DNA from: a virus
Lineage: Duplodnaviria > Heunggongvirae > Uroviricota > Caudoviricetes
Length of the DNA stretch: 23,885 nt
IMG/VR virus record: IMGVR_UViG_2778261635_000004
Span: 1 to 23,885 of that record
Direction: 5' to 3' (one strand)
In this document: positions 10,492-23,885 of the stretch, piece after piece
How positions within the stretch are numbered: the first letter of the stretch is position 1
Layout: each line of letters starts with the position of its first letter
Position numbers and translations under genes: made by a program
The notes under the pieces: model-generated
Database searches by the model: none
Seen by the model: the letters and a program-made list of their open reading frames with translations, nothing else
What the model was told of the DNA's origin: nothing

Positions 10492-12258
10492 ATGAACACC
10501 ACACTGACACCCGCAGATCTCGATCCCCGTCGGCAGGCCATGCTGCTGTACTTTCAGGGATACCGCGTAGCCCGCATTGCTGAAATGCTGGGCGAGAAAG
10601 TTGCAACCGTTCACAGCTGGAAAAAACGCGACAAATGGGGTGACTATGGGCCGCTGGATCAGATGCAGCTCACCACCGCCGCACGCTACTGCCAGCTCAT
10701 CATGAAGGAGCACAAAGAAGGGAAAGATTTCAAAGAGATTGACCTGCTGGCGCGCCAGTCGGAGCGCCACGCGCGGATCGGCAAGTTTAACAATGGCGGC
10801 AACGAAGCCGACTTAAACCCTAACGTCGCCAACCGCAACAAAGGCCCGCGCCGTCAGCCGGAAAAGAATGTCTTCACCGATGAACAGACCGAAAAGCTGG
10901 AGGAAATCTTCCGCAACGGCATGTTTGAATATCAGCGCCACTGGTGGCAGGCAGGCGTAAAACACCGCATTCGCAACCTGCTTAAATCACGCCAGATCGG
11001 GGCAACATACTTTTTTGCCCGCGAAGCGCTGATTGACGCCATCACCACGGGGCGCAACCAGATTTTTCTCTCAGCCAGTAAGGCGCAGGCACACGTTTTT
11101 AAGCAGTACATCATCGACTTTGCAAAAGAGGTGGATGTTGAGCTGAAAGGCGACCCGATGACCCTCAGCAACGGCGCGTGCCTGTACTTCCTCGGCACCA
11201 ACGCCCGCACGGCGCAGAGCTACCACGGCAACCTGTACCTTGATGAATATTTCTGGATACCGAAATTCCAGGAGTTGCGCAAGGTTGCCTCCGGTATGGC
11301 CATTCACAAGAAATGGCGACAAACCTACTTCTCCACGCCGTCCAGCCTGACCCACAGCGCCTATCCGTTCTGGTCTGGCGCGCTGTTCAACCGGGGCCGC
11401 GCCAAAGCAGACAAGGTGGACATTGACCTGACCCACAGCAACCTTGCGCGCGGCGTGCTCTGCCCGGACGGACAATATCGCCAGATCGTCACCGTAGAGG
11501 ATGCGGTGCGCGGTGGCTGTAATCTGTTCGACCTTGACCAGCTGCGCATGGAGTACAGCCCGGACGAATACCAGAACCTGCTGATGTGCGAATTTATTGA
11601 CGATCTGGCGTCAGTATTCCCGCTCAGCGAGCTGCAGGCGTGCATGGTGGACAGCTGGGAAGTGTGGGCAGATTTTCAGGCGCTGGCGCTGCGCCCGTTT
11701 GGCTGGCGCGAAGTCTGGATCGGATACGACCCGGCGAAAGGCACGCAGAACGGTGACAGCGCCGGGTGCGTGGTGGTGGCACCACCAACCGTACCGGGCG
11801 GCAAGTTCCGCATTCTTGAGCGGCACCAGTGGCGCGGGATGGACTTCCGCGCCCAGGCTGACGCTATCAAAAAGCTGACGCAGCAATACAACGTGACCTA
11901 TATCGGCATCGACTCGACCGGCGTCGGTCACGGTGTCTACGAGAACGTGAAAGCGTTCTTTCCTGCCGTGCGGGAGTTTGTCTACAACCCCAACGTCAAA
12001 AACGCCCTGGTGCTCAAGGCATACGACATTATCAGCCACCGGCGTCTGGAGTTCGACGCCGGGCACACCGACATTGCGCAGTCCTTTATGGCTATCCGCC
12101 GGGCCACTACCGCCAGCGGCAACCGCCCAACCTACGAAGCCAACCGCAGCGAAGAAGCCAGCCACGCAGATTTGGCCTGGGCAACGATGCACGCACTGTT
12201 TAACGAACCGCTGCAGGGTGAATCCGCCAATACCAGTAATATCGTGGAGATTTTTTAA
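10492..12258 (+). CDS. P: Terminase large (ATPase) subunit P
   Basis: 588 aa; size and position match P2 gpP; transcribed divergently from O and followed by the portal. Confidence 0.9.
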   Translation: MNTTLTPADLDPRRQAMLLYFQGYRVARIAEMLGEKVATVHSWKKRDKWGDYGPLDQMQLTTAARYCQLIMKEHKEGKDFKEIDLLARQSERHARIGKFNNGGNEADLNPNVANRNKGPRRQPEKNVFTDEQTEKLEEIFRNGMFEYQRHWWQAGVKHRIRNLLKSRQIGATYFFAREALIDAITTGRNQIFLSASKAQAHVFKQYIIDFAKEVDVELKGDPMTLSNGACLYFLGTNARTAQSYHGNLYLDEYFWIPKFQELRKVASGMAIHKKWRQTYFSTPSSLTHSAYPFWSGALFNRGRAKADKVDIDLTHSNLARGVLCPDGQYRQIVTVEDAVRGGCNLFDLDQLRMEYSPDEYQNLLMCEFIDDLASVFPLSELQACMVDSWEVWADFQALALRPFGWREVWIGYDPAKGTQNGDSAGCVVVAPPTVPGGKFRILERHQWRGMDFRAQADAIKKLTQQYNVTYIGIDSTGVGHGVYENVKAFFPAVREFVYNPNVKNALVLKAYDIISHRRLEFDAGHTDIAQSFMAIRRATTASGNRPTYEANRSEEASHADLAWATMHALFNEPLQGESANTSNIVEIF

Positions 12259-13304
12259 TGAGTGAACAAAACGAGGCCGCAAGTCTGGGGACTATCGATC
12301 CACAGCACCTGCCTGACAAAGCAGCCACAGCCGAAGCATTCAGCTTCGGCGATCCGATCCCGGTGTTAGACCGTCGCGAACTTCTTGACTATGTAGAGTG
12401 CGTACAGATGGATCGCTGGTATGAGCCGCCTGTCAGCTTTGACGGACTGGCGCGGACTTACCGTGCCGCGGTGCACCACAGCTCACCGATTGCCGTAAAG
12501 CGTGACATTCTCAGCAGCACTTACATCCCGCACCGCCTGCTCAGCCAGCAGGCTTTTGCCCGTTTCGTCCAGGACTATCTGGTATTCGGTAACGCCTATC
12601 TGGAAAAACGCACCAACCGGCTCGGCGGCGTTCTCTCACTTGAGCCAGCACTAGCGAAATATACACGGCGTGGAGTGGACCTCGAAACCTACTGGTTTGT
12701 GCAGTATGGTCTGACCACACAGCCATATGAATTTACGCGTGGCAACGTCTTCCATCTGATGGAACCGGATATTAACCAGGAGATTTATGGGTTGCCCGGC
12801 TATCTCTCCGCTATCCCATCAACCCTTCTCAACGAGTCCGCAACGCTATTTCGCCGGAAGTATTACATCAACGGCAGCCATGCTGGCTTCATCATGTACA
12901 TGACTGACGCAGCGCAGAATCAGGAGGATGTGAACAATATCCGCCAGGCAATGAAAAGCGCCAAAGGACCAGGTAATTTTCGCAACCTGTTTATGTACTC
13001 CCCCAACGGGAAAAAAGATGGTATCCAGATCATTCCATTGTCCGAGGTGGCAGCAAAAGATGAATTTCTGAACATCAAGAACGTGAGCCGCGATGACATG
13101 ATGGCAGCGCACCGCGTTCCGCCGCAAATGATGGGAATTATTCCCAACAATACAGGCGGTTTTGGTGATGTAGAAAAAGCCAGTCGCGTATTTGTTCGCA
13201 ATGAGTTAATCCCCTTGCAAAAACGTTTGCAGGAATTAAATGACTGGCTTGGGGAAGCAATAATTACATTTTCACCTTATGAATTGGGTGCAGATGTAAA
13301 ATAA
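12258..13304 (+). CDS. Q: Portal protein Q
   Basis: 348 aa; start overlaps P stop; size and position match P2 gpQ. Confidence 0.9.
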   Translation: MSEQNEAASLGTIDPQHLPDKAATAEAFSFGDPIPVLDRRELLDYVECVQMDRWYEPPVSFDGLARTYRAAVHHSSPIAVKRDILSSTYIPHRLLSQQAFARFVQDYLVFGNAYLEKRTNRLGGVLSLEPALAKYTRRGVDLETYWFVQYGLTTQPYEFTRGNVFHLMEPDINQEIYGLPGYLSAIPSTLLNESATLFRRKYYINGSHAGFIMYMTDAAQNQEDVNNIRQAMKSAKGPGNFRNLFMYSPNGKKDGIQIIPLSEVAAKDEFLNIKNVSRDDMMAAHRVPPQMMGIIPNNTGGFGDVEKASRVFVRNELIPLQKRLQELNDWLGEAIITFSPYELGADVK

Positions 13305-13310
13305 TTGGTT

Positions 13311-14084
13311 CTAGCCTCTATTTTTTCTTCTATCCTCACGCCTTTCTTTTGCCTGAGCAAGGCGTTGAGGTTCAGTATATAAACGTTCCAACAATATATA
13401 AGTGAACTCTTCAAGGTCCTCCGCAGCCGCGTAATCTAAAGCTCCTTCATGCGCGCCATCATTGCCATCATCTTTCACACATTCAGCCAAGTCTCTTAAA
13501 GTCTCTGGCAACCGCTGATTATCAAACAACCAATTCATTCTTAACCCTAAGCTTCGCCGTATTTTTTGATTTGGTTCAGTATCTCCCTTAGGTAATAAGT
13601 CCTTAGTTGCATAATCCAAACATAACCTAAACATAGTTCCTGCTGCGTTATAGCAACCAATAGCTAAACACTTAGAACCTTCTACAAAAGCTTCGTGTAT
13701 ATGCTGAGGCAAAAATTCTGGCGGTTCTCCTGCATCTAAGTCTGCTGGACTAATTGGGCGTTTGACTTTTGCAATATCAGTTAGCTTAAATAAGGCCATG
13801 CCCCAGTTAATGCTGCTAAGATCACGTCCCCGATCTAAGCTATCACAAATATATATCGTTGTTTTCTTACACTCCCTGCATACACAATATACCTCATATT
13901 CGGGTAAATTATCGCCGGAAAATGTTTCATACGTACCGCAGCAGTTTGCCCCTAGAACATCAAATGCTATTTTTTGCGCACCACACCTTGGGCAGTTTTC
14001 CACTAACATAGCCATGCAACAGATATCCTTGAAATGGTGATTATTTGTATGTTCTAAATACCATAATTTCTTACTGACAACCAT
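13311..14084 (-). CDS. Cys-rich zinc-ribbon protein with DUF4145-like C-terminal domain; cargo gene between portal and cos
   Basis: 257 aa; CxxC pairs (CPRCG, CRECKK) plus other Cys in the N-terminal 90 aa; C-terminus LRDLAECVKDDGNDGAHEGALDYAAAEDLEEF resembles the DUF4145 pattern as I recall it. AT-rich; only 6 bp from the Q stop (convergent); start codon about 10 nt from the cos-like sequence. Confidence 0.5.
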   Translation of the reverse strand: MVVSKKLWYLEHTNNHHFKDICCMAMLVENCPRCGAQKIAFDVLGANCCGTYETFSGDNLPEYEVYCVCRECKKTTIYICDSLDRGRDLSSINWGMALFKLTDIAKVKRPISPADLDAGEPPEFLPQHIHEAFVEGSKCLAIGCYNAAGTMFRLCLDYATKDLLPKGDTEPNQKIRRSLGLRMNWLFDNQRLPETLRDLAECVKDDGNDGAHEGALDYAAAEDLEEFTYILLERLYTEPQRLAQAKERREDRRKNRG

Positions 14085-14093
14085 GAGCGCGCG

Positions 14094-14112
14094 CTCGTAT
14101 CCCCGCCACGCC
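14094..14112. other. cos-like cohesive-end site
   Basis: Reverse complement reads GGCGTGGCGGGGATACGAG, close to the 19-nt cohesive ends I recall for P2 (GGCGAGGCGGGGAAAGCAC) and 186 (GGCGTGGCGGGGAAAGCAT); next to the portal end of the map as expected. Confidence 0.45.
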
Positions 14113-14121
14113 TGCCCGCTT

Positions 14122-14238
14122 TATGCAGTGGTTTTCATGCACATGCATGACATGAGCAAAAGCCCGCCAGTTCTGGCGGATCTGAGCAAAGACGATCCTC
14201 AATCGATCATGCGATTTCATGCAGCATAGTCATGCACT
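14122..14238. repeat. Cluster of (T)CATGCA hexamer repeats plus a 16-bp palindrome (ccgccag tt ctggcgg, about 14164..14179) flanked by GAGCAAA direct repeats
   Basis: CATGCA or near-copies at about 14122, 14136, 14142, 14208, 14218, 14232; palindrome and flanking repeats read directly from the sequence. Confidence 0.5.
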
Positions 14239-14491
14239 GTCAAGGAAGTGAAAATCCGTATCTGAATGGCCACTTGAAAAACGGATCATACGGGTTTACA
14301 AAGATGAATGTTCGCTGTGAACGGGAAGCGGAAGTTAACTTTCAGATAACATAATCCATATGCACGAGAACCTCTAAAATAGAATGGGACACCTAAGCGG
14401 GGTACTTACAACGATTCTTTCCATATTCACAGTTAACACTCTGTTTGGCGTATTTTTATTCAAATAGCAAACACCAATAAAAGGAGTTTCC

Positions 14492-14827
14492 ATGAACAAT
14501 ATTCCCCCTATACCACAGTTAGGAATTTATGTCTCAAAAATCGATCCCACCCTACGTATCACTGTAACCGATGTTGATATTGTTGATGGTGAGGATGATT
14601 CTCCTGATGATGAATTGTTTTATTTAGTCCACTGGATCGAGGGGGAAGATGAAAGTGATATGACAGCAATGGGATTTGAGCTAGACCCATTAGAGTGGCA
14701 GGCTTTCGTTGAATCTGAGCAATTAGTGTTTGAGCGTGATCCGTACATGGATTCAATCCCCGAAAATTCAAACTTGGCAAAGATTCGGGATTTTCTCATG
14801 AAGACTAAACAGAATGATCATTCGTAA
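14492..14827 (+). CDS. Small, highly acidic hypothetical protein (Asp/Glu-rich), cargo gene
   Basis: 111 aa with strong RBS (aaaggag 7 nt before ATG); D/E runs (DGEDDSPDDE, EGEDESD); AT-rich. Confidence 0.65.
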   Translation: MNNIPPIPQLGIYVSKIDPTLRITVTDVDIVDGEDDSPDDELFYLVHWIEGEDESDMTAMGFELDPLEWQAFVESEQLVFERDPYMDSIPENSNLAKIRDFLMKTKQNDHS

Positions 14828-14981
14828 GTGTAAGCATCCATCAGGAAAATGGTTTTGTAAGTGAATCATCAACTTTTAGAGAGTCTCAGACACTCCCACT
14901 TCTGCTTCTGACACAAAGCGGACGATCACTTATCAAAATAACCGCCCACCTTACGCCTTATTTCACTCATTGCCCAAACTA

Positions 14982-15011
14982 GCCCCCATCAGAATGAATC
15001 CTCCTGGGGGC
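14982..15011. terminator. Possible bidirectional terminator hairpin between convergent genes
   Basis: GCCCCCA ... TGGGGGC inverted repeat (7-bp arms) between the acidic-protein gene and the convergent DinI-like gene; loop is long (16 nt) and the U-run weak. Confidence 0.25.
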
Positions 15012-15019
15012 AACATTTC

Positions 15020-15253
15020 TTAATGCAGCCAGCTGTCGTCCTCCCACACCTTCTGCATAATTTTCATCACTTGTTTTCTTTCTTCATCCAGTTGCAGTCC
15101 GGTTAGTTCCACACCGTTAGAGCTACCTTTGCGAATGCGAATTACCGTTTTGGGATACAGGGGGCGCAGATTGCGGTAAAGCTCGGATTCAAGTGCGTCC
15201 AAGGTAGACTGGCTAATCTTCTGCTCTTTATCGATCATTATTTCAATGCGCAT
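15020..15253 (-). CDS. DinI-family protein (SOS-induced RecA modulator homologue)
   Basis: Track ORF 15020..15325; the likely start is the internal ATG at 15253 (GAGGTG upstream), giving 77 aa. MRIEIMIDKEQ...ALESELYRNL...QKVWEDDSW follows the recalled E. coli DinI pattern (MRIEVTI..., ...TWE...W). Confidence 0.75.
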   Translation of the reverse strand: MRIEIMIDKEQKISQSTLDALESELYRNLRPLYPKTVIRIRKGSSNGVELTGLQLDEERKQVMKIMQKVWEDDSWLH

Positions 15254-15263
15254 AAAAGTCACC

Positions 15264-15452
15264 TCAGCTGATGACATCCATTGAGCGGTTGTATTCGTGG
15301 CTTCTGATTTTTGCCATGAGTTCATCAGTCAATTCAGAAACCCACTGCAGAGCCAGCCCCTTCTCTTCATCACTACACTCACTAGCCGCTACAAGCTTAA
15401 GAAAAAAATCAATGCGCTGGAGCTTCAAAGACTCCAAAAAATAGTCCTGCAT
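15264..15452 (-). CDS. Small hypothetical protein, first gene of the LexA-controlled operon (candidate Tum-like antirepressor part)
   Basis: 62 aa from the ATG at 15452 with AGGAGG 5 nt upstream; the longer track ORF (to 15554) would run through the LexA box and promoter. Confidence 0.5.
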   Translation of the reverse strand: MQDYFLESLKLQRIDFFLKLVAASECSDEEKGLALQWVSELTDELMAKIRSHEYNRSMDVIS

Positions 15453-15494
15453 CTTTCCTCCTATGACACCAAAACAATACTGTATGCATAACCA

Positions 15495-15510
15495 CTGTTT
15501 ATATTTACAG
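15495..15510 (-). promoter_or_regulatory. LexA (SOS) box overlapping a promoter for the small-protein/DinI-like operon
   Basis: CTGTttatatttACAG matches CTGT-N8-ACAG with AT-rich spacer and flanking ca/ta; about 40 nt upstream of the 15452 start; TTTACA -35-like hexamer just upstream on the coding strand. Confidence 0.7.
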
Positions 15511-15605
15511 TATATAATAATCTTACTGATGTAAAACGTTTTTTTTACGTTCATCGGCCTGATATGCCTGGTATTATTAAGAGCACGAATTGTTAACCCG
15601 CGTAA

Positions 15606-18020
15606 TTAATACAGGTTCCGCCACTTATCATCTTCCTTCAGACGCTGGTTCCGATAGAAGATACGCAGGCCTGCTCCTGACGGAATACTGCCGCCGCGAA
15701 GGAGCAAATCGACTTCTTTCTCGCTGCCATCAAATCCCCTGGACTTCAGTTCATAGACGAGCTGCTGTCGCTGATGGTCTGTAATTCGCTGTTTGTAGTC
15801 TTTACGCCGTTTCGGTTTCACCTGGCGTAACCTTGCAGCCAGTTCCCGGCGCTCTTTTTTGCTCATACTGTGCAGGTAATCGTGCAACTCCTTGTCATTC
15901 ATACGGGTAATATCCGTTCTGGAGTCCCCATCAGCTGATTTGTCTTTCCCTTGTTGGTTCAAATTTTCAGCAAGGGGACAGTTATTGCCACGAGTCCAAG
16001 GGGCGCAAGCGCCCTGGTCGGCTACCGCCTCCTGAACGTCAACGGCCTTACGAACCATTTTCCACTTCACTGCATGAGTGCAGATCTTGCCCTCTGCAAT
16101 GGGTGACCAGATGCCATAAATACGAATGCCGTGATCGCCATAGGCGGTCGGCTCTTCGTTGATTTCATAAGCGGTTCTGATAAGGTGATATTTACGGGGA
16201 ACCAGTACGCCGCCCTGCTTCATGATGTAGGTGGCAAAACAACCAGCATCAGCAGCAGCCAGGATGGCATCAAGGCGCGGGTCATCCAGTATCGGCGCAC
16301 CTGCTTTTTTGTCACCCTGTTGCCTTGCCGCCTGACCAGCCAGCAAGCGAAGTTCACGGTAAGCCTGACGTCCCGGAATACCAAAGAAGCGGAACTGCTG
16401 AACACGATGCAGAGACGCCCAGGCATTAACGTATTCGGCGTTATCACGCAGGGATTTACCCGTTTCCTTGCTGATCTCGCCAGCCAGACCACGCCCGTCA
16501 ATGTTCTTACTGATGTATTTCGCGATGTAGCTTGTCGGTGTTCCTTTGCGCCGGTTAATCAGCTCAGACTTAAAGCGTGGCCCCGTGTTGTTGCCCAGCT
16601 CCTCGCGGTCTACACGGATGGCAAACTTACGCAGTAATGCAGTGATGGCGCGGCGGTCTTTTTTACGCATGAAGCACATGAGATGCCAGTGCACAGTACC
16701 GTCATGGTGCGGCTCAGCCACCCGCACGCCATACCAGCGCAACCCGGTTTTGTGCATTGCCTTACGAAATGCAGCAAACATGCCGACCATATAATCGCTG
16801 CTTTGTCTTACCGTCGCATTTGTCCAGGTCGGGTTGGGTCTGCCGTTGTTGAGCGTGGAATGGAAACGTGACGGACAGGTGATAGTGTAGAAAACGGCGC
16901 AGTCACCGCGCATTTCCGCGATAAGCTCCAGACCTTTAACACAGGCCATCATCTCATTGCGGCGATGCGCAGGGTTGCTGCTGCTGGCGTTTACCACATC
17001 CTCCATGTCCAGCGTGTCGCCGTCTTCGTTCACCAGTTCATGAGAACGGAAAAACTCCAGCGACTTACGGCGCTGCTCACGTTTATGCATCACGGCTTCA
17101 TAGCTGACATAGGGAGATGCTTTTTTGCTGACCAGGCAGACAGCACGCAACTGCTCTTCCCGCCATTCGCAACGCATCTTCCATAATTTCCCATACCACC
17201 AGTCGGCGCACAACATACGCGCCAGCGAACCCGGAATGAGTTCATAGGGCACGGGTTTACGGCGGTTTCTTTTCCGACGGAGTTGCTCAAACGCAGGTGG
17301 GATGACATCCAGACGCAGGGTTTCCGCCGCCACCTTTTCCCATGTCTTGCGGATTTCTTCTGGCTTAACGTCATCGGTGGCATACAAATCGCCACAAGCT
17401 GCATCAAGGCACATGCTCATATGCGCAGCTACCAGGGTGGACAGGCGTTTCACCTGATCCTGACTCATTTCAGGCAGGATCAGCAGGCCCTCCAGCCCTT
17501 GATGGCTTGCCATAAAACGGAAAGAAGCAGACAGCTGACTGTCACGTACACAATCCAGTCGCTCCAGACATGGCTTAATCGTCTCACGCAAATAGCGGGA
17601 ATAAGCCTTTGGCCTGCCCAGGCTGCTGAAGTATTCGATACGTTGCATCAGCGGCTTGCTAATATGGGTGGGCTGGGCGCTGACGTCCGCCAGAATGACC
17701 ATGTCCGGGTTAAAACGCTGCTGTTCATGCGCTAGCTTTGCCCGGCTAATGAGCTTATCCTGCTCCATTTCGCGCTGGACAGGATCACGAGATTCATTAA
17801 AGAAATAACGCTCCCAGACCTGCTCACTCAGTGCATCGCGGCGCAGCTGTTCCTGCTCATTATCGGCAGCGTACAGAGTGATCAGGTTTAAAAGTGCAGA
17901 CTCCGGAGCAACTTCCGCCGGGTCCAGATAAGGGTTAATGGCCTTTTTCGGGCCGTTCCATGAAAATGCTGCAGCGGCCTCGTTAAAGCCGCTAGAGTTG
18001 CTCATATCGTCATGACTCAT
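15606..18020 (-). CDS. A: Replication initiation protein A (rolling-circle endonuclease)
   Basis: 804 aa; HUH-like motif [10 protein letters not shown] and active-site tyrosine motif YIAKYISK; GAGGTG RBS; start overlaps the Dam stop. Confidence 0.9.
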
Positions 18021-20834: not shown

Positions 20835-21410
20835 ATGGATTTCAGCAGCGGTGGTAAGAAAGTCATTGAACGTCTAGTTGAGGCGTACGGGTTCTCTACG
20901 AGACAAGCTCTTTGCGATCATTTGGGAGTATCCAAGAGCACCATGGCTACACGTTACATGCGAGACATCTTCCCTGCAGATTGGGTTTTGCAATGTGCTA
21001 TTGAAACTGGTTATCCACTAGAATGGCTGGCATTCGGTATAGGGGACAAAAAACCCTCAAATATAAATGCACAAATTTTGGTACCAAAGAAAAAATTAAT
21101 TTCAGGAACGTTAATTGAAGATGGAGCATATATTTTTGATAAAACATTCTTACCTGAAAAAATATGTAATCCGTTCATCATTCAAGATCTGGATAACGAA
21201 TACATATGTAGCTTTGAATATAATGACATAAGCGATGGATTGTGGCTAATAGGCATAGACGAAAAAATTTCGGTCCGAACCCTGACCCGCTTACCTAATA
21301 ACAGGTTATATGTTGAAGGAGGAAATCGTGGCTTTGAGTGTTCCAGAGATGAAATACAGGTTATTGGAATTGTGTGGTGCTGCATACTAAGAAGAGCAGA
21401 AAAATTTTAG
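20835..21410 (+). CDS. cI: Immunity repressor, phage 186 CI-like
   Basis: Internal ATG at 20835 with GGAGG RBS gives 191 aa (186 CI is about 192 aa as I recall); N-terminal HTH-like segment (GFSTRQALCDHLGVSKSTMATRYMR); divergent from Apl/Cox. Confidence 0.7.
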   Translation: MDFSSGGKKVIERLVEAYGFSTRQALCDHLGVSKSTMATRYMRDIFPADWVLQCAIETGYPLEWLAFGIGDKKPSNINAQILVPKKKLISGTLIEDGAYIFDKTFLPEKICNPFIIQDLDNEYICSFEYNDISDGLWLIGIDEKISVRTLTRLPNNRLYVEGGNRGFECSRDEIQVIGIVWCCILRRAEKF

Positions 21411-21441: not shown

Positions 21442-22773
21442 ATGCCTATTGAATATACGTTTGATTATCGTGATGAGTTCCTTCGTAAGCCTATTGCTGA
21501 AAAATTAATAGCTCTACTGAACTCTGATATTAACTTATCTCCGCTGGTTATAGATGGCGGATGGGGCACGGGAAAAACAGAGTTTTGCAAAAAAGTTGCA
21601 AATCTAATTGAAAACAATAATCAAAAACATAAAGTAGTTTACATTGATGCTTTCGCTGAAGATCATAATGATGCCCCCATTTTGACGTTAATGGCAGGTG
21701 TTGCTGCACTTTTGCCCGAAGACAAACGAAAAGAGTTGATAAGCAAAACACTACCAGCAATACGTTTTGGTTTGAAAACCATTTTCAAAGCTGGCACTGG
21801 ATGGGTGTTAAAACAAAATGCAGATGACATTGTTGATGGCTTCGAAGATGCTATCAAAGAAGCCACTTCGAGTGCAATCGACAGTACAATTGAAACATTA
21901 TTAGACGATCATATAGAAGCACAGAAAAACATCGAGACATTGAGAAATACAATTTCGCAACTTACAGAGAAATTTAAAATAACGATTATTATAGACGAAC
22001 TGGACAGATGTAAACCTACATTCGCTCTTTCAATCATAGAAAATATTAAACACATTTTTGAAATAAAAAACTTGAATTTTGTTTTGGTTGCAAAGACTCA
22101 ACAACTCAAAGCATCAATAAGCCATCTGTATGGTTTATCCATAAATGCAGAACAGTATTTAGACAAATTCATAAAATTTACATTTGTATTGCCCGATACA
22201 TTTAAACCAGACAACTATACACCTGCATACGCATCTGTCGCTTTATGGGAAATATTAAAAAATGATTCTCAAAGACTGCAAGAAGTAAACGAAGAATGCG
22301 GGCATATTATAAAAACGATAATACAAAGAGCTAAGTTGTCTTTACGTGAAGTAGAAACATTATCGCGCCATTTTGAAATATATCAGGTGCTATCTCAATC
22401 TGGAATTGGTCCAGAAAAAATATTTGGTTATTCATTATACCGAACGTTAGGAGTGATGCTATATTCTCTAAATCGCCCTTTGGCATTAAGCTATCTAGAT
22501 AATTCTGTGGATGCAGAAAGTACTATCAAAACATTAGGCTTTGAATATTTAAGTTATGATGAGGATATTTATAGTGTAGATAATACTGAATATGCTATTT
22601 ATGGGATCGTACTAGACTATATTGATGCAACATCTCCATTCTTTATAAAGGATGATGAAACCAGAAAAAAATGGACTGAACATGCTACCTATAGTTTCTT
22701 TCAAAAGGGCTTAAATACTGTTCCTCCCCGAAAACTTGTTTCGTCCGCCATTGAAGTTTTAATGCTCAACTAA
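21442..22773 (+). CDS. KAP-family P-loop NTPase, stand-alone cargo gene in the lysogenic operon
   Basis: 443 aa; Walker A GGWGTGKT with the KAP-typical Trp; Walker B IIIDELDRC; hydrophobic insert (APILTLMAGVAALLP) between them; AT-rich; 31 nt after the CI stop on the same strand with GGAG RBS; integrase follows. Confidence 0.8.
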   Translation: MPIEYTFDYRDEFLRKPIAEKLIALLNSDINLSPLVIDGGWGTGKTEFCKKVANLIENNNQKHKVVYIDAFAEDHNDAPILTLMAGVAALLPEDKRKELISKTLPAIRFGLKTIFKAGTGWVLKQNADDIVDGFEDAIKEATSSAIDSTIETLLDDHIEAQKNIETLRNTISQLTEKFKITIIIDELDRCKPTFALSIIENIKHIFEIKNLNFVLVAKTQQLKASISHLYGLSINAEQYLDKFIKFTFVLPDTFKPDNYTPAYASVALWEILKNDSQRLQEVNEECGHIIKTIIQRAKLSLREVETLSRHFEIYQVLSQSGIGPEKIFGYSLYRTLGVMLYSLNRPLALSYLDNSVDAESTIKTLGFEYLSYDEDIYSVDNTEYAIYGIVLDYIDATSPFFIKDDETRKKWTEHATYSFFQKGLNTVPPRKLVSSAIEVLMLN

Positions 22774-22806
22774 AGATGTATAATTGACTGATTTCATACA
22801 TTGACA

Positions 22807-22822
22807 CTGATTATATATACAG
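22807..22822 (+). promoter_or_regulatory. LexA-box-like dyad (CTGA-N8-ACAG) inside a candidate promoter just upstream of int
   Basis: TTGACA (22801..22806) followed by CTGAttatatatACAG: one mismatch to CTGT-N8-ACAG, with both CTG/CAG triplets intact; int ATG is at 22854. Confidence 0.3.
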
Positions 22823-22853
22823 TAAAAATGCTCTCCACTGGAGGGCATTTTTT

Positions 22854-23885
22854 ATGGCAGTACGAAAACTCACCACAGGAAAATGGCTTTGCGAATGTTA
22901 CCCCGCCGGACGTAGTGGGCGTCGTGTGCGTAAACAATTCGCCACCAAAGGCGAAGCACTGGCTTTTGAGCGTCACACGATGGAAGAAACCGAAGCAAAG
23001 CCCTGGCTGGGTGAATCAGTGGATCGTCGAACACTGAAAGACGTGGTTGAGCTATGGTTCAAACTACATGGTAAATCTCTGACAGCTGGGCAGCATGTCT
23101 ATGACAAATTGCTGTTGATGGTTGACGCTCTAGGCAATCCTCTTGCAACCGATCTCACCTCTAAAATGTTTGCCCACTATCGAGATAAACGCCTGACAGG
23201 CGAGATCTACTTCAGCGAGAAATGGAAGAAAGGAGCAAGCCCGGTCACCATTAACCTGGAGCAAAGCTATCTAAGTAGTGTTTTTAGCGAACTATCCCGT
23301 CTGGGCGAATGGTCGTATCCGAACCCACTGGAGAACATGCGAAAATTCACCATCGCAGAAAAAGAGATGGCATGGCTTACCCATGAGCAGATTGTTGAAT
23401 TGCTGGCTGATTGCAAACGTCAGGACCCAATTCTGGCACTGGTAGTTAAGATATGCTTAAGCACAGGCGCACGCTGGCGTGAAGCCGTAAATCTTACCCG
23501 CTCACAGGTGACCAAATACCGAATTACCTTTGTAAGAACGAAGGGGAAGAAAAACAGAAGCATCCCTATCAGTAAAGAGCTTTACGAAGAGATCATGGCG
23601 CTTGATGGGTTCAATTTCTTCACAGACTGCTATTTTCAATTTTTATCCGTGATGGAAAAAACGTCTATCGTGCTCCCTCGCGGTCAACTGACACACGTTC
23701 TGCGCCATACGTTTGCGGCGCATTTCATGATGTCGGGTGGAAATATCCTTGCTTTGCAAAAAATCCTCGGACATCACGACATAAAAATGACCATGCGTTA
23801 CGCACATCTGGCACCGGATCACCTGGAAACTGCATTACGGTTTAATCCGCTGGCAACACTACCAACATCAACAGCAACTGTTTGA
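22854..23885 (+). CDS. int: Tyrosine integrase (P2/186-type)
   Basis: 343 aa complete ORF with GGAGGG RBS; C-terminal catalytic region HVLRHTFAAHFMMSGGNILALQKILGHHDIKMTMRYAHL (R...H..R...Y pattern). Confidence 0.9.
   Translation: MAVRKLTTGKWLCECYPAGRSGRRVRKQFATKGEALAFERHTMEETEAKPWLGESVDRRTLKDVVELWFKLHGKSLTAGQHVYDKLLLMVDALGNPLATDLTSKMFAHYRDKRLTGEIYFSEKWKKGASPVTINLEQSYLSSVFSELSRLGEWSYPNPLENMRKFTIAEKEMAWLTHEQIVELLADCKRQDPILALVVKICLSTGARWREAVNLTRSQVTKYRITFVRTKGKKNRSIPISKELYEEIMALDGFNFFTDCYFQFLSVMEKTSIVLPRGQLTHVLRHTFAAHFMMSGGNILALQKILGHHDIKMTMRYAHLAPDHLETALRFNPLATLPTSTATV

Follow-up and report, generated by a model that had tools for sequence, protein, structure and literature searches.

The 23,885-nt stretch of DNA analysed here (the window) is a P2-like prophage of the Fels-2/186 type (186 family, Peduoviridae) from E. 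coli, and the operon that follows its replication gene A is, with a probability that we put at roughly 85%, the SOS operon tumA-tumB of this Fels-2-like prophage, acting through the antirepressor mechanism proposed below. The module itself is already known, this being another copy of the split tum described for PSP3 and Fels-2 and of 186 Tum. A first-pass annotation had seen at this place a two-gene operon for a 62-aa protein and a DinI-family protein, and had taken it for the Tum equivalent, possibly split into two polypeptides. All of this stood: the two genes were confirmed (Table 1), both products are homologous to halves of Tum (TumA to residues 5-48, TumB to residues 71-145), the operon has the same position after gene A, and a tumA/tumB pair is on record for PSP3.

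Table 1. Features of the tumA-tumB operon, its prophage surroundings and the int-side element, in window coordinates
Feature	Position	Strand	Remarks
Terminase	10492-12258		
Portal	12258-13304		
G+C-rich hairpin GCCCCCA...TGGGGGC, weak U tail	14982..15011	-	8 nt past the tumB stop; where 186 has t95a
tumB, 77-aa DinI-family protein	15020..15253	-	Equivalent to the C-terminal half of 186 Tum
tumB Shine-Dalgarno sequence GAGGTG	15260..15265	-	Overlaps the tumA stop TGA (15264-15266)
tumA, 62 aa	15264..15452 (stop included)	-	Homologous to the N-terminal (antirepressor) half of 186 Tum
LexA (SOS) box	15493..15512	.	Minus strand TACTGTAAATATAAACAGTG; core CTGT-N8-ACAG at 15495-15510
Putative -10 TACTGT	15507..15512	-	Inside the LexA box; hexamer and register as in the annotated 186 p95 -10
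Putative -35 TTTACA of the SOS promoter (p95 equivalent)	15530..15535	-	17 nt from TACTGT; inferred
Gene A, rolling-circle replication endonuclease	15606..18020	-	Pfam Phage_GPA E 1.7e-125; upstream neighbour of tumA-tumB
cI, 186-type immunity repressor, 191 aa	20835..21410	+	Presumed TumA target
LexA-type box, promoter and hairpin before int	22801..22853	+	Outside the reported module coordinates

The operon follows directly on gene A, with all its elements on the minus strand; a 153-nt intergenic region leads from the gene A stop codon to the tumA side. In the 186 map gene A is likewise followed by p95-tum, and with gene A as its direct neighbour the operon is thus fixed at the same genome position. 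Beyond the structural and replication genes of Table 1, the window encodes a Dam methylase, CII-like and Apl/Cox-like regulators, the CI repressor, a KAP-family NTPase and an integrase. At the DNA level it is closest to E. coli chromosomes and to Peduoviridae phages of Escherichia, Klebsiella and Salmonella. The full 62-aa TumA query has a 100% identical counterpart in E. coli, and the promoter-tumA-tumB DNA is 96% identical to that of Fels-2. Of 5426 complete E. coli genomes, 1317 match parts of the 3-kb region around the module, some of these matches falling in the flanking genes for portal and replicase. Homology to related phages stops at 15010-15022; the stop codon of tumB marks this limit, and a variable cargo slot begins there. 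An Rfam search of 14300-15700 returned no RNA family.

The control region was the starting point of the first-pass annotation, which had described a near-consensus LexA box overlapping a promoter. The 16-mer CTGTTTATATTTACAG at 15495-15510 is the single exact CTGT-N8-ACAG in the window. By itself this core is not significant, with 0.32 expected per window and at least one in 27 of 100 shuffles, and a sigma-70 consensus scan of the region called no promoter; both facts would suit a palindrome that arose by chance in AT-rich intergenic DNA, the genes then being under constitutive expression or read-through from gene A. The complete site tells against such an origin. At 15493-15512 the 20-mer matches the consensus TACTGTATATATATACAGTA at 17 of 20 positions, while none of 100 shuffles yielded any site with three or fewer mismatches to the 20-bp LexA consensus. 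Boxes of 17-19/20 stand upstream of tum or tumA, in the same position and register, in ten phage loci of several genera (the phages compared being Fels-2, 186, EtG, ENT90, vB_YenM_324, vB_YenM_201.16, ESSI-2, ESSI2_ev015 and PSP3), 20-40 nt ahead of the homologous gene and within surrounding sequence that is divergent and otherwise unalignable. CTG-N10-CAG is moreover present in all 52 IMG/VR loci with tum or tumA, either inside the tum reading-frame segment or no more than 120 nt upstream of it, and the homologous p95 promoter of 186 is LexA-regulated. It is the 20-bp match absent from shuffles, together with the conserved placement among divergent flanks, that makes the LexA box convincing, and we regard its origin by chance as very improbable.

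Since the consensus scan found none, the promoter was placed through its register with the annotated 186 p95. Its hexamers are weak (the -10 matches the consensus at 3/6 positions), TATACT at 15509-15514 is an alternative -10, and the arrangement TTTACA-17 nt-TACTGT of the window differs slightly from TTCACA-18 nt-TACTGT in p95. The region thereby presents what is expected of a LexA regulon member, a near-consensus palindrome that overlaps promoter (-10) elements and is kept while the flanks drift; by analogy with its homologues, the operon is probably bound by LexA and transcribed in an SOS-dependent manner. A second, overlapping LexA box (CTGTATGCATAACCAC, 15481-15496) was considered and rejected as a full site because its right half reads CCAC; all that Fels-2 has in common here is the ACAGTA half-site at 15478-15483.

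The first gene, tumA, runs from an ATG at 15452, with AGGAGG 7 nt upstream, to the TGA at 15264-15266. A program-made list of open reading frames gives instead a 96-aa version from 15554, which runs through promoter and box. The 62-aa start is preferred because the longer frame contains the promoter, because a strong ribosome-binding site precedes the ATG at 15452, and because most homologues are 62 aa long and start with MQDY. An exhaustive HMMER search with TumA gathered 67 cluster representatives, nearly all of 55-75 aa. A profile built from 30 diverse homologues matches residues 5-48 of 186 Tum with 34.8 bits (E 3.5e-12), and it picks up the Tum-like proteins of EtG, ENT90 and two Yersinia phages as well. 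In a direct Smith-Waterman comparison of TumA with the N-terminal half of Tum (Tum-N), the score of 57 (z 9.5) was reached by none of 2000 shuffles. The relationship is distant, given that BLASTP with composition adjustment produced no alignment of TumA with 186 Tum; a tblastn search of phage genomes with Tum-N missed the Fels-2-type TumA, and identity is about 20%. The two share the core E-x3-(Q/E)-R-(I/V)-(D/E)-x3-(R/K)-L-x6-C-x3-(D/E)-(K/R)-x-(L/I)-A-L-x-(W/L)-(I/V)-(A/S)-E-(L/I).

TumA falls into phrog_698 (unknown function) at E 5.9e-38; Pfam, NCBIfam and PADLOC hold no family for it, and it matched no solved structure by sequence. An AlphaFold model (pLDDT 88) shows a two-helix hairpin with helices at residues 2-23 and 28-61, for which a Foldseek search of the PDB returned generic helical hairpins only (best E 0.83). 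The distribution of the gene is more telling: in ENT90, Yen324, Yen201.16, ESSI-2 and ev015, a LexA box is followed by a Tum-N-like gene on its own, without a DinI partner. These five phages argue that the small helical protein would be the essential core of the module and the DinI-like protein an add-on.

The identity of the second product is clear from its family. TumB matches Pfam DinI (PF06183) over the whole profile (positions 1-63 of 63; E 6.6e-23, 81.3 bits where the gathering threshold is 24.2). It shows 41% identity (E 3e-24) to 186 Tum, over residues 71-145 of the latter, and aligns end to end with E. coli DinI (PDB 1GHH, residues 1-77). Against the NCBIfam DinI equivalog NF007893 it scores 42.7 bits, under the cut-off of 111, which makes TumB a phage paralogue and not the host DinI. 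The alignment of both products to 186 Tum and E. coli DinI, suggested by the first-pass annotation as a check, has thus come out in its favour, for TumA by profile and Smith-Waterman comparison and for TumB by this 41% identity and the match to 1GHH. By analogy with DinI, TumB probably binds RecA filaments and modulates co-protease activity.

The tumB ATG at 15253 lies 10 nt past the tumA stop and 6 nt beyond GAGGTG, and translational coupling of the two genes is likely, since the ribosome-binding site of tumB overlaps the stop codon of tumA. Downstream of tumB, the hairpin of Table 1 may be the terminator of the operon: it appears in the minimum-energy fold, for which the z-score of the whole segment is just -0.95, and a terminator scan did not call it. 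The sole match of that scan spans the tumA/tumB junction and was read as the coupling region, not as a terminator.

The presumed target of TumA supports the same assignment. Called 186-like in the first-pass annotation, the repressor indeed consists of the Pfam domains Phage_CI_repr and Phage_CI_C, aligns end to end with 186 CI at 34% identity and matches the solved 186 CI structures 2FJR and 2FKD. That annotation had also noted that 186 CI is not cleaved through RecA and that induction runs via the LexA-controlled Tum; the cited 186 work agrees, with UV induction of 186 through LexA-controlled Tum both shown and used experimentally (PMC7708051), and the CI of the window carries no Peptidase_S24 domain. 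A lambda-like route, in which RecA would stimulate self-cleavage of CI and tumA-tumB would be dispensable, has the general paradigm of prophage induction in its favour and nothing from the sequence. With 186-type domains in place of a LexA-like S24 peptidase, with matches to the 186 CI structures, and with 186 itself induced through Tum and not through cleavage, we consider this route very unlikely. TumA, as its homologues suggest, probably binds CI.

Taken together, these features suggest the following course of events. In the lysogen, host LexA on the 15493-15512 box would cover the -10 region and keep the operon silent. Upon DNA damage, active RecA would bring about self-cleavage of LexA, and the promoter would fire to give one bicistronic mRNA. 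TumA, the predicted helical hairpin, would serve as antirepressor and, like the N-terminal half of Tum, bind CI non-covalently and keep it off its operators. The early lytic promoter would then be derepressed, Apl and the replication genes would be expressed, and the prophage would be induced. For TumB, coupled to TumA, the most likely role is to bind RecA filaments and adjust how strong the SOS signal is or how long it lasts. Inducibility of the window prophage is expected by comparison with its homologues; the strength of induction is not readable from sequence.

The same genes could instead form an accessory 'moron' module, in which the operon modulates the host SOS response via the DinI-like protein, the 62-aa protein has some other role, and induction proceeds independently. 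DinI homologues are common SOS-regulated prophage cargo, the dinI genes of the Gifsy phages being an example (PMC3121763). TumA is also near-invariant while CI diverges (see below), and DuoHS, a P2-like prophage of E. coli HS, is only weakly induced by mitomycin C, its response being ~100-fold below that of a P22-like neighbour (bioRxiv 10.64898/2026.05.19.726188); the link of DuoHS to tumA-tumB is indirect and runs through the Fels-2 record, which likens its tumA gene to EcHS_A0919 of E. coli HS. An accessory role sits poorly with the homology of TumA to the N-terminal half of Tum, and with the five related phages that have no DinI and keep only the Tum-N-like gene behind a LexA box. In addition, the tumA of PSP3 is annotated for UV induction of the prophage, and CI has no other visible route to inactivation by SOS. 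We therefore judge an accessory module unlikely, and retain the antirepressor operon as the reading of tumA-tumB.

How TumA relates to its target across phages was followed in CI, Tum/TumA and DinI-like genes extracted from 19 sources, namely the window and 18 phage genomes. Over its core (residues 1-47), TumA does not differ at a single position (100% identity) between the window, Fels-2, 4LV2017, KP12, Cartapus, Kp4846-2 and Kp4865-2, whereas the CI proteins of the phages with this identical core are just 38-48% identical to the window CI, with 59-68% identity in the N-terminal domain and 22-36% in the C-terminal domain. An invariant TumA facing divergent CI proteins is unexpected for an immunity-specific antirepressor. 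Either TumA recognises a conserved surface of CI, or the pairing of TumA and CI is looser than assumed. In all pairs among 18 sources (MLG42 was omitted for its incomplete CI extract), TumA identity correlates with identity of the CI N-terminal domain at a Pearson r of 0.82, against 0.43 for the C-terminal domain, and the N-terminal domain carries group-specific blocks, SKSTMANR and RD-FPA-W-IQCALETG in the Fels-2 type and IASSSLSNRY and SYD in the 186 type. Correlation and block together would fit a TumA that contacts the DNA-binding domain of CI. One TumA might then serve several divergent CI alleles, common descent being the alternative; if one TumA does so, a shared TumA could cross-induce Fels-2-like prophages with different CI repressors.

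The window holds one other site within three mismatches of the LexA consensus, CACTGATTATATATACAGTA at 22805-22824, ahead of the integrase gene. This box fills the spacer of a near-consensus promoter, TTGACA-17-AAAAAT (22801-22829), 25 nt before the int ATG (22854); between the two lies a hairpin followed by T6, and the int ribosome-binding site forms the 3' arm of this hairpin. Homology to 4LV2017, KP12 and 813R9 begins exactly at the int promoter element, and the cargo genes upstream differ. To survey the element, IMG/VR was scanned with a pattern that specified CATTGA and the int start and left the LexA box unspecified, which returned 119 loci with 71 distinct upstream variants. CTG-N10-CAG occurs in every one of the 71, which form two main clades and hence should not be counted as 71 independent cases. 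ACTG and ACAGT never change, in contrast to the inner positions, the left half reading CTGT in 33 variants, CTGG in 37 and CTGA in 1. The pairing of the hairpin is likewise kept through double changes (GCCCTC/GAGGGC, GTCCTC/GAGGAC, GCTCTCC/GGAGGGC).

The int promoter always stands behind a variable cargo slot that parts int from cI; the cI-int distance is 385-2732 nt in all scanned loci in which a cI-like reading frame was found, and tum or tumA is also present in 43 of the 47 int-box loci with enough flank. By its conservation, the int-side element has the pattern of a functional LexA site. Its hairpin and T-run could insulate int from read-through and so make the supply of integrase dependent on SOS. 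For P2-like phages, a literature search turned up no relevant work on control of int by LexA, which is not proof of novelty. That LexA gates a dedicated int promoter besides tumA-tumB, and at the same time a near-invariant TumA is shared among divergent CI proteins via their conserved N-terminal domain, is a combined proposal that we advance tentatively, at somewhat less than even odds.

The value of the tumA-tumB assignment itself is correct annotation. Thousands of database entries label the 62-aa TumA 'hypothetical' and some call it 'levan regulatory protein'; others give an over-long tumA reading frame of 87-101 aa that runs through its own promoter, and several phage records leave the gene unannotated. 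Naming it TumA would flag widespread prophages as likely SOS-inducible through an antirepressor. More important, if confirmed, would be a LexA-gated int promoter tied to a cargo slot and one antirepressor for many repressor alleles, both of which would bear on how induction and excision are coordinated among co-resident prophages.

Among known systems, the closest are Fels-2 and PSP3, 186-related Salmonella phages with the same two-gene layout after gene A and a LexA box in the same place. That tum is split by a stop codon in both is stated by Lemire et al. 2011 (PMC3121763), who cite Bunny et al. 2002 as the primary source for Fels-2 and attribute antirepressor activity to the upstream gene of PSP3 on the basis of a personal communication, cited second-hand. 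The products of Fels-2 STM2728 and STM2726.1 are 96.8% identical to TumA and 100% identical to TumB, respectively. The two prophages differ in their immunity regions (cI, apl), which are not homologous at the DNA level, with CI 38% identical, and in the genes downstream of tumB. The PSP3 record describes tumA as 'similar to 5' end 186 tum; UV induction of prophage' and tumB as 'similar to dinI and 3' end of 186 tum'. Its LexA box reads TACTGTATAAATATACAGTA, and its TumB is, by eye, very similar over the full length, whereas its TumA is a different allele, scoring 3.9 bits against the TumA profile and lying closer to 186 Tum-N.

With p95-tum-orf97 of 186 the operon shares its genome position, the LexA box over a -10 TACTGT, both halves of Tum and the type of CI target. 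After gene A, the 186 record annotates p95 as 'SOS-dependent transcription of SOS operon', with a LexA site, and tum as 'expression repressed by LexA; inhibits CI DNA binding', with internal starts, including a GTG, that give the DinI-like half alone. 186 Tum is a 146-aa fusion of the two halves via a 20-residue linker, whereas in the window they are parted by a stop codon and a 10-nt spacer; 186 also has orf97, of which the window contains no homologue and to which Fels-2 STM2726 is not detectably related. TumB shares with E. coli DinI the C-terminal W-E-acidic-W segment. The logic of the module recurs further afield in dinI-gfoA/gftA of Gifsy-1 and Gifsy-3 and in AntC of N15, where, as PMC3121763 describes, LexA represses a small antirepressor that binds a non-cleavable repressor; the antirepressor genes of the Gifsy phages share their transcript with a dinI homologue. 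The repressors there, gfoR and gtgR (of a group that includes DicA and RacR), are not 186-type CI, and the description in the same source sets their antirepressors apart from that of the 186 family.

The core of TumA, the homologue of the N-terminal half (Tum-N) of the phage 186 Tum antirepressor, is 100% identical in seven compared sequences, namely the window and six phages. Despite this identity, the CI repressors of the same six phages share just 38-48% identity with that of the window, with 59-68% in the N-terminal domain and 22-36% in the C-terminal domain. In the comparison of the window genes (tumA, 15264-15452; cI, 20835-21410) with phage loci L009-L025, TumA type follows the N-terminal domain of CI (r 0.82) and not the C-terminal domain (r 0.43).

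A near-consensus promoter, TTGACA-17-AAAAAT, lies immediately upstream of int, and a second LexA-type box takes up its spacer (see table). CTG-N10-CAG was present in 71/71 distinct IMG/VR variants of this region, a set that falls into two main clades rather than 71 independent observations, and the box itself had been left out of the search pattern. Across these variants ACTG and ACAGT are invariant and the inner positions vary. The int ribosome-binding site forms the 3' arm of a hairpin, whose pairing is preserved in relatives by compensatory changes (GCCCTC/GAGGGC and GTCCTC/GAGGAC). RNAs from the LexA-boxed promoter would start within the 5' arm, and the hairpin could terminate or mask read-through transcripts, although both ideas are speculative.

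Features in and around the tum region and upstream of int (window positions)
Feature	Position	Strand	Remarks
DUF4145 protein	13311-14084	-	phrog_1305
111-aa ORF	14492-14827		phrog_17127, unknown function; convergent with DUF4145 gene
Over-long tumA reading	15264-15554	-	start at 15554, 96 aa
Extra ACAGTA half-site	15478-15483	-	10 nt downstream of first LexA box
KAP-family P-loop NTPase	21442-22773	+	443 aa; insertion between cI and int
LexA-boxed promoter element before int	22801-22853	+	int = 22854-23885
Second LexA-type box	22805-22824	+	CACTGATTATATATACAGTA; 17/20 consensus positions
Hairpin at int start	22830-22853	+	GCTCTCC/GGAGGGC + T6; adjoins int ATG

In the IMG/VR loci, this promoter element always comes after the variable cargo slot that separates cI from int. 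The window carries a KAP-family NTPase here; it scores E 5e-174 against PDC-S20, a candidate defence family of PADLOC, and hits PifA and QatA more weakly. The cargo differs in other phages.

Public gene calls frequently lengthen tumA to 84-101 aa, as in the 96-aa reading of the window, whose start is probably mis-called because the coding sequence would then contain the LexA box and promoter. Some sources name TumA a 'levan regulatory protein', and the records of vB_YenM_324, ESSI-2 and 4LV2017 leave the Tum-N/TumA-type gene wholly unannotated. The extra ACAGTA half-site downstream of the first LexA box is kept in Fels-2; it has no matching left half, since CCAC stands in place of ACAG in the would-be overlapping box (15481-15496).

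No DinI gene lies beside the LexA-boxed Tum-N/TumA-type gene in ENT90, vB_YenM_324, vB_YenM_201.16, ESSI-2 or ESSI2_ev015 (the loci behind these stand-alone or unannotated genes are L003, L004, L005, L007, L008 and L010). Many distant stand-alone TumA homologues (P0147, P0149, P0153, P0156, P0173, P0178, P0181 and others) share a conserved C-terminal tail, K-(N/S)-P-Q-x-G-G...G-x-x-(L/F)-Q. Among the examined phage loci, two encode it, Yen324 (L004) and ev015 (L008), both without a DinI-like partner. The window TumA and 186 Tum both lack the tail.

A further variable slot separates tumB, the DinI-family gene, from the portal gene (13311-14827 in the window). Its DUF4145 protein weakly matches PADLOC PD-T7-4 (E 5.9e-06), and E. 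coli relatives carry other genes here, a TIR-domain protein among them. The equivalent slot of 186 holds orf97, the gene after tum, in place of the DUF4145 protein and 111-aa ORF of the window.
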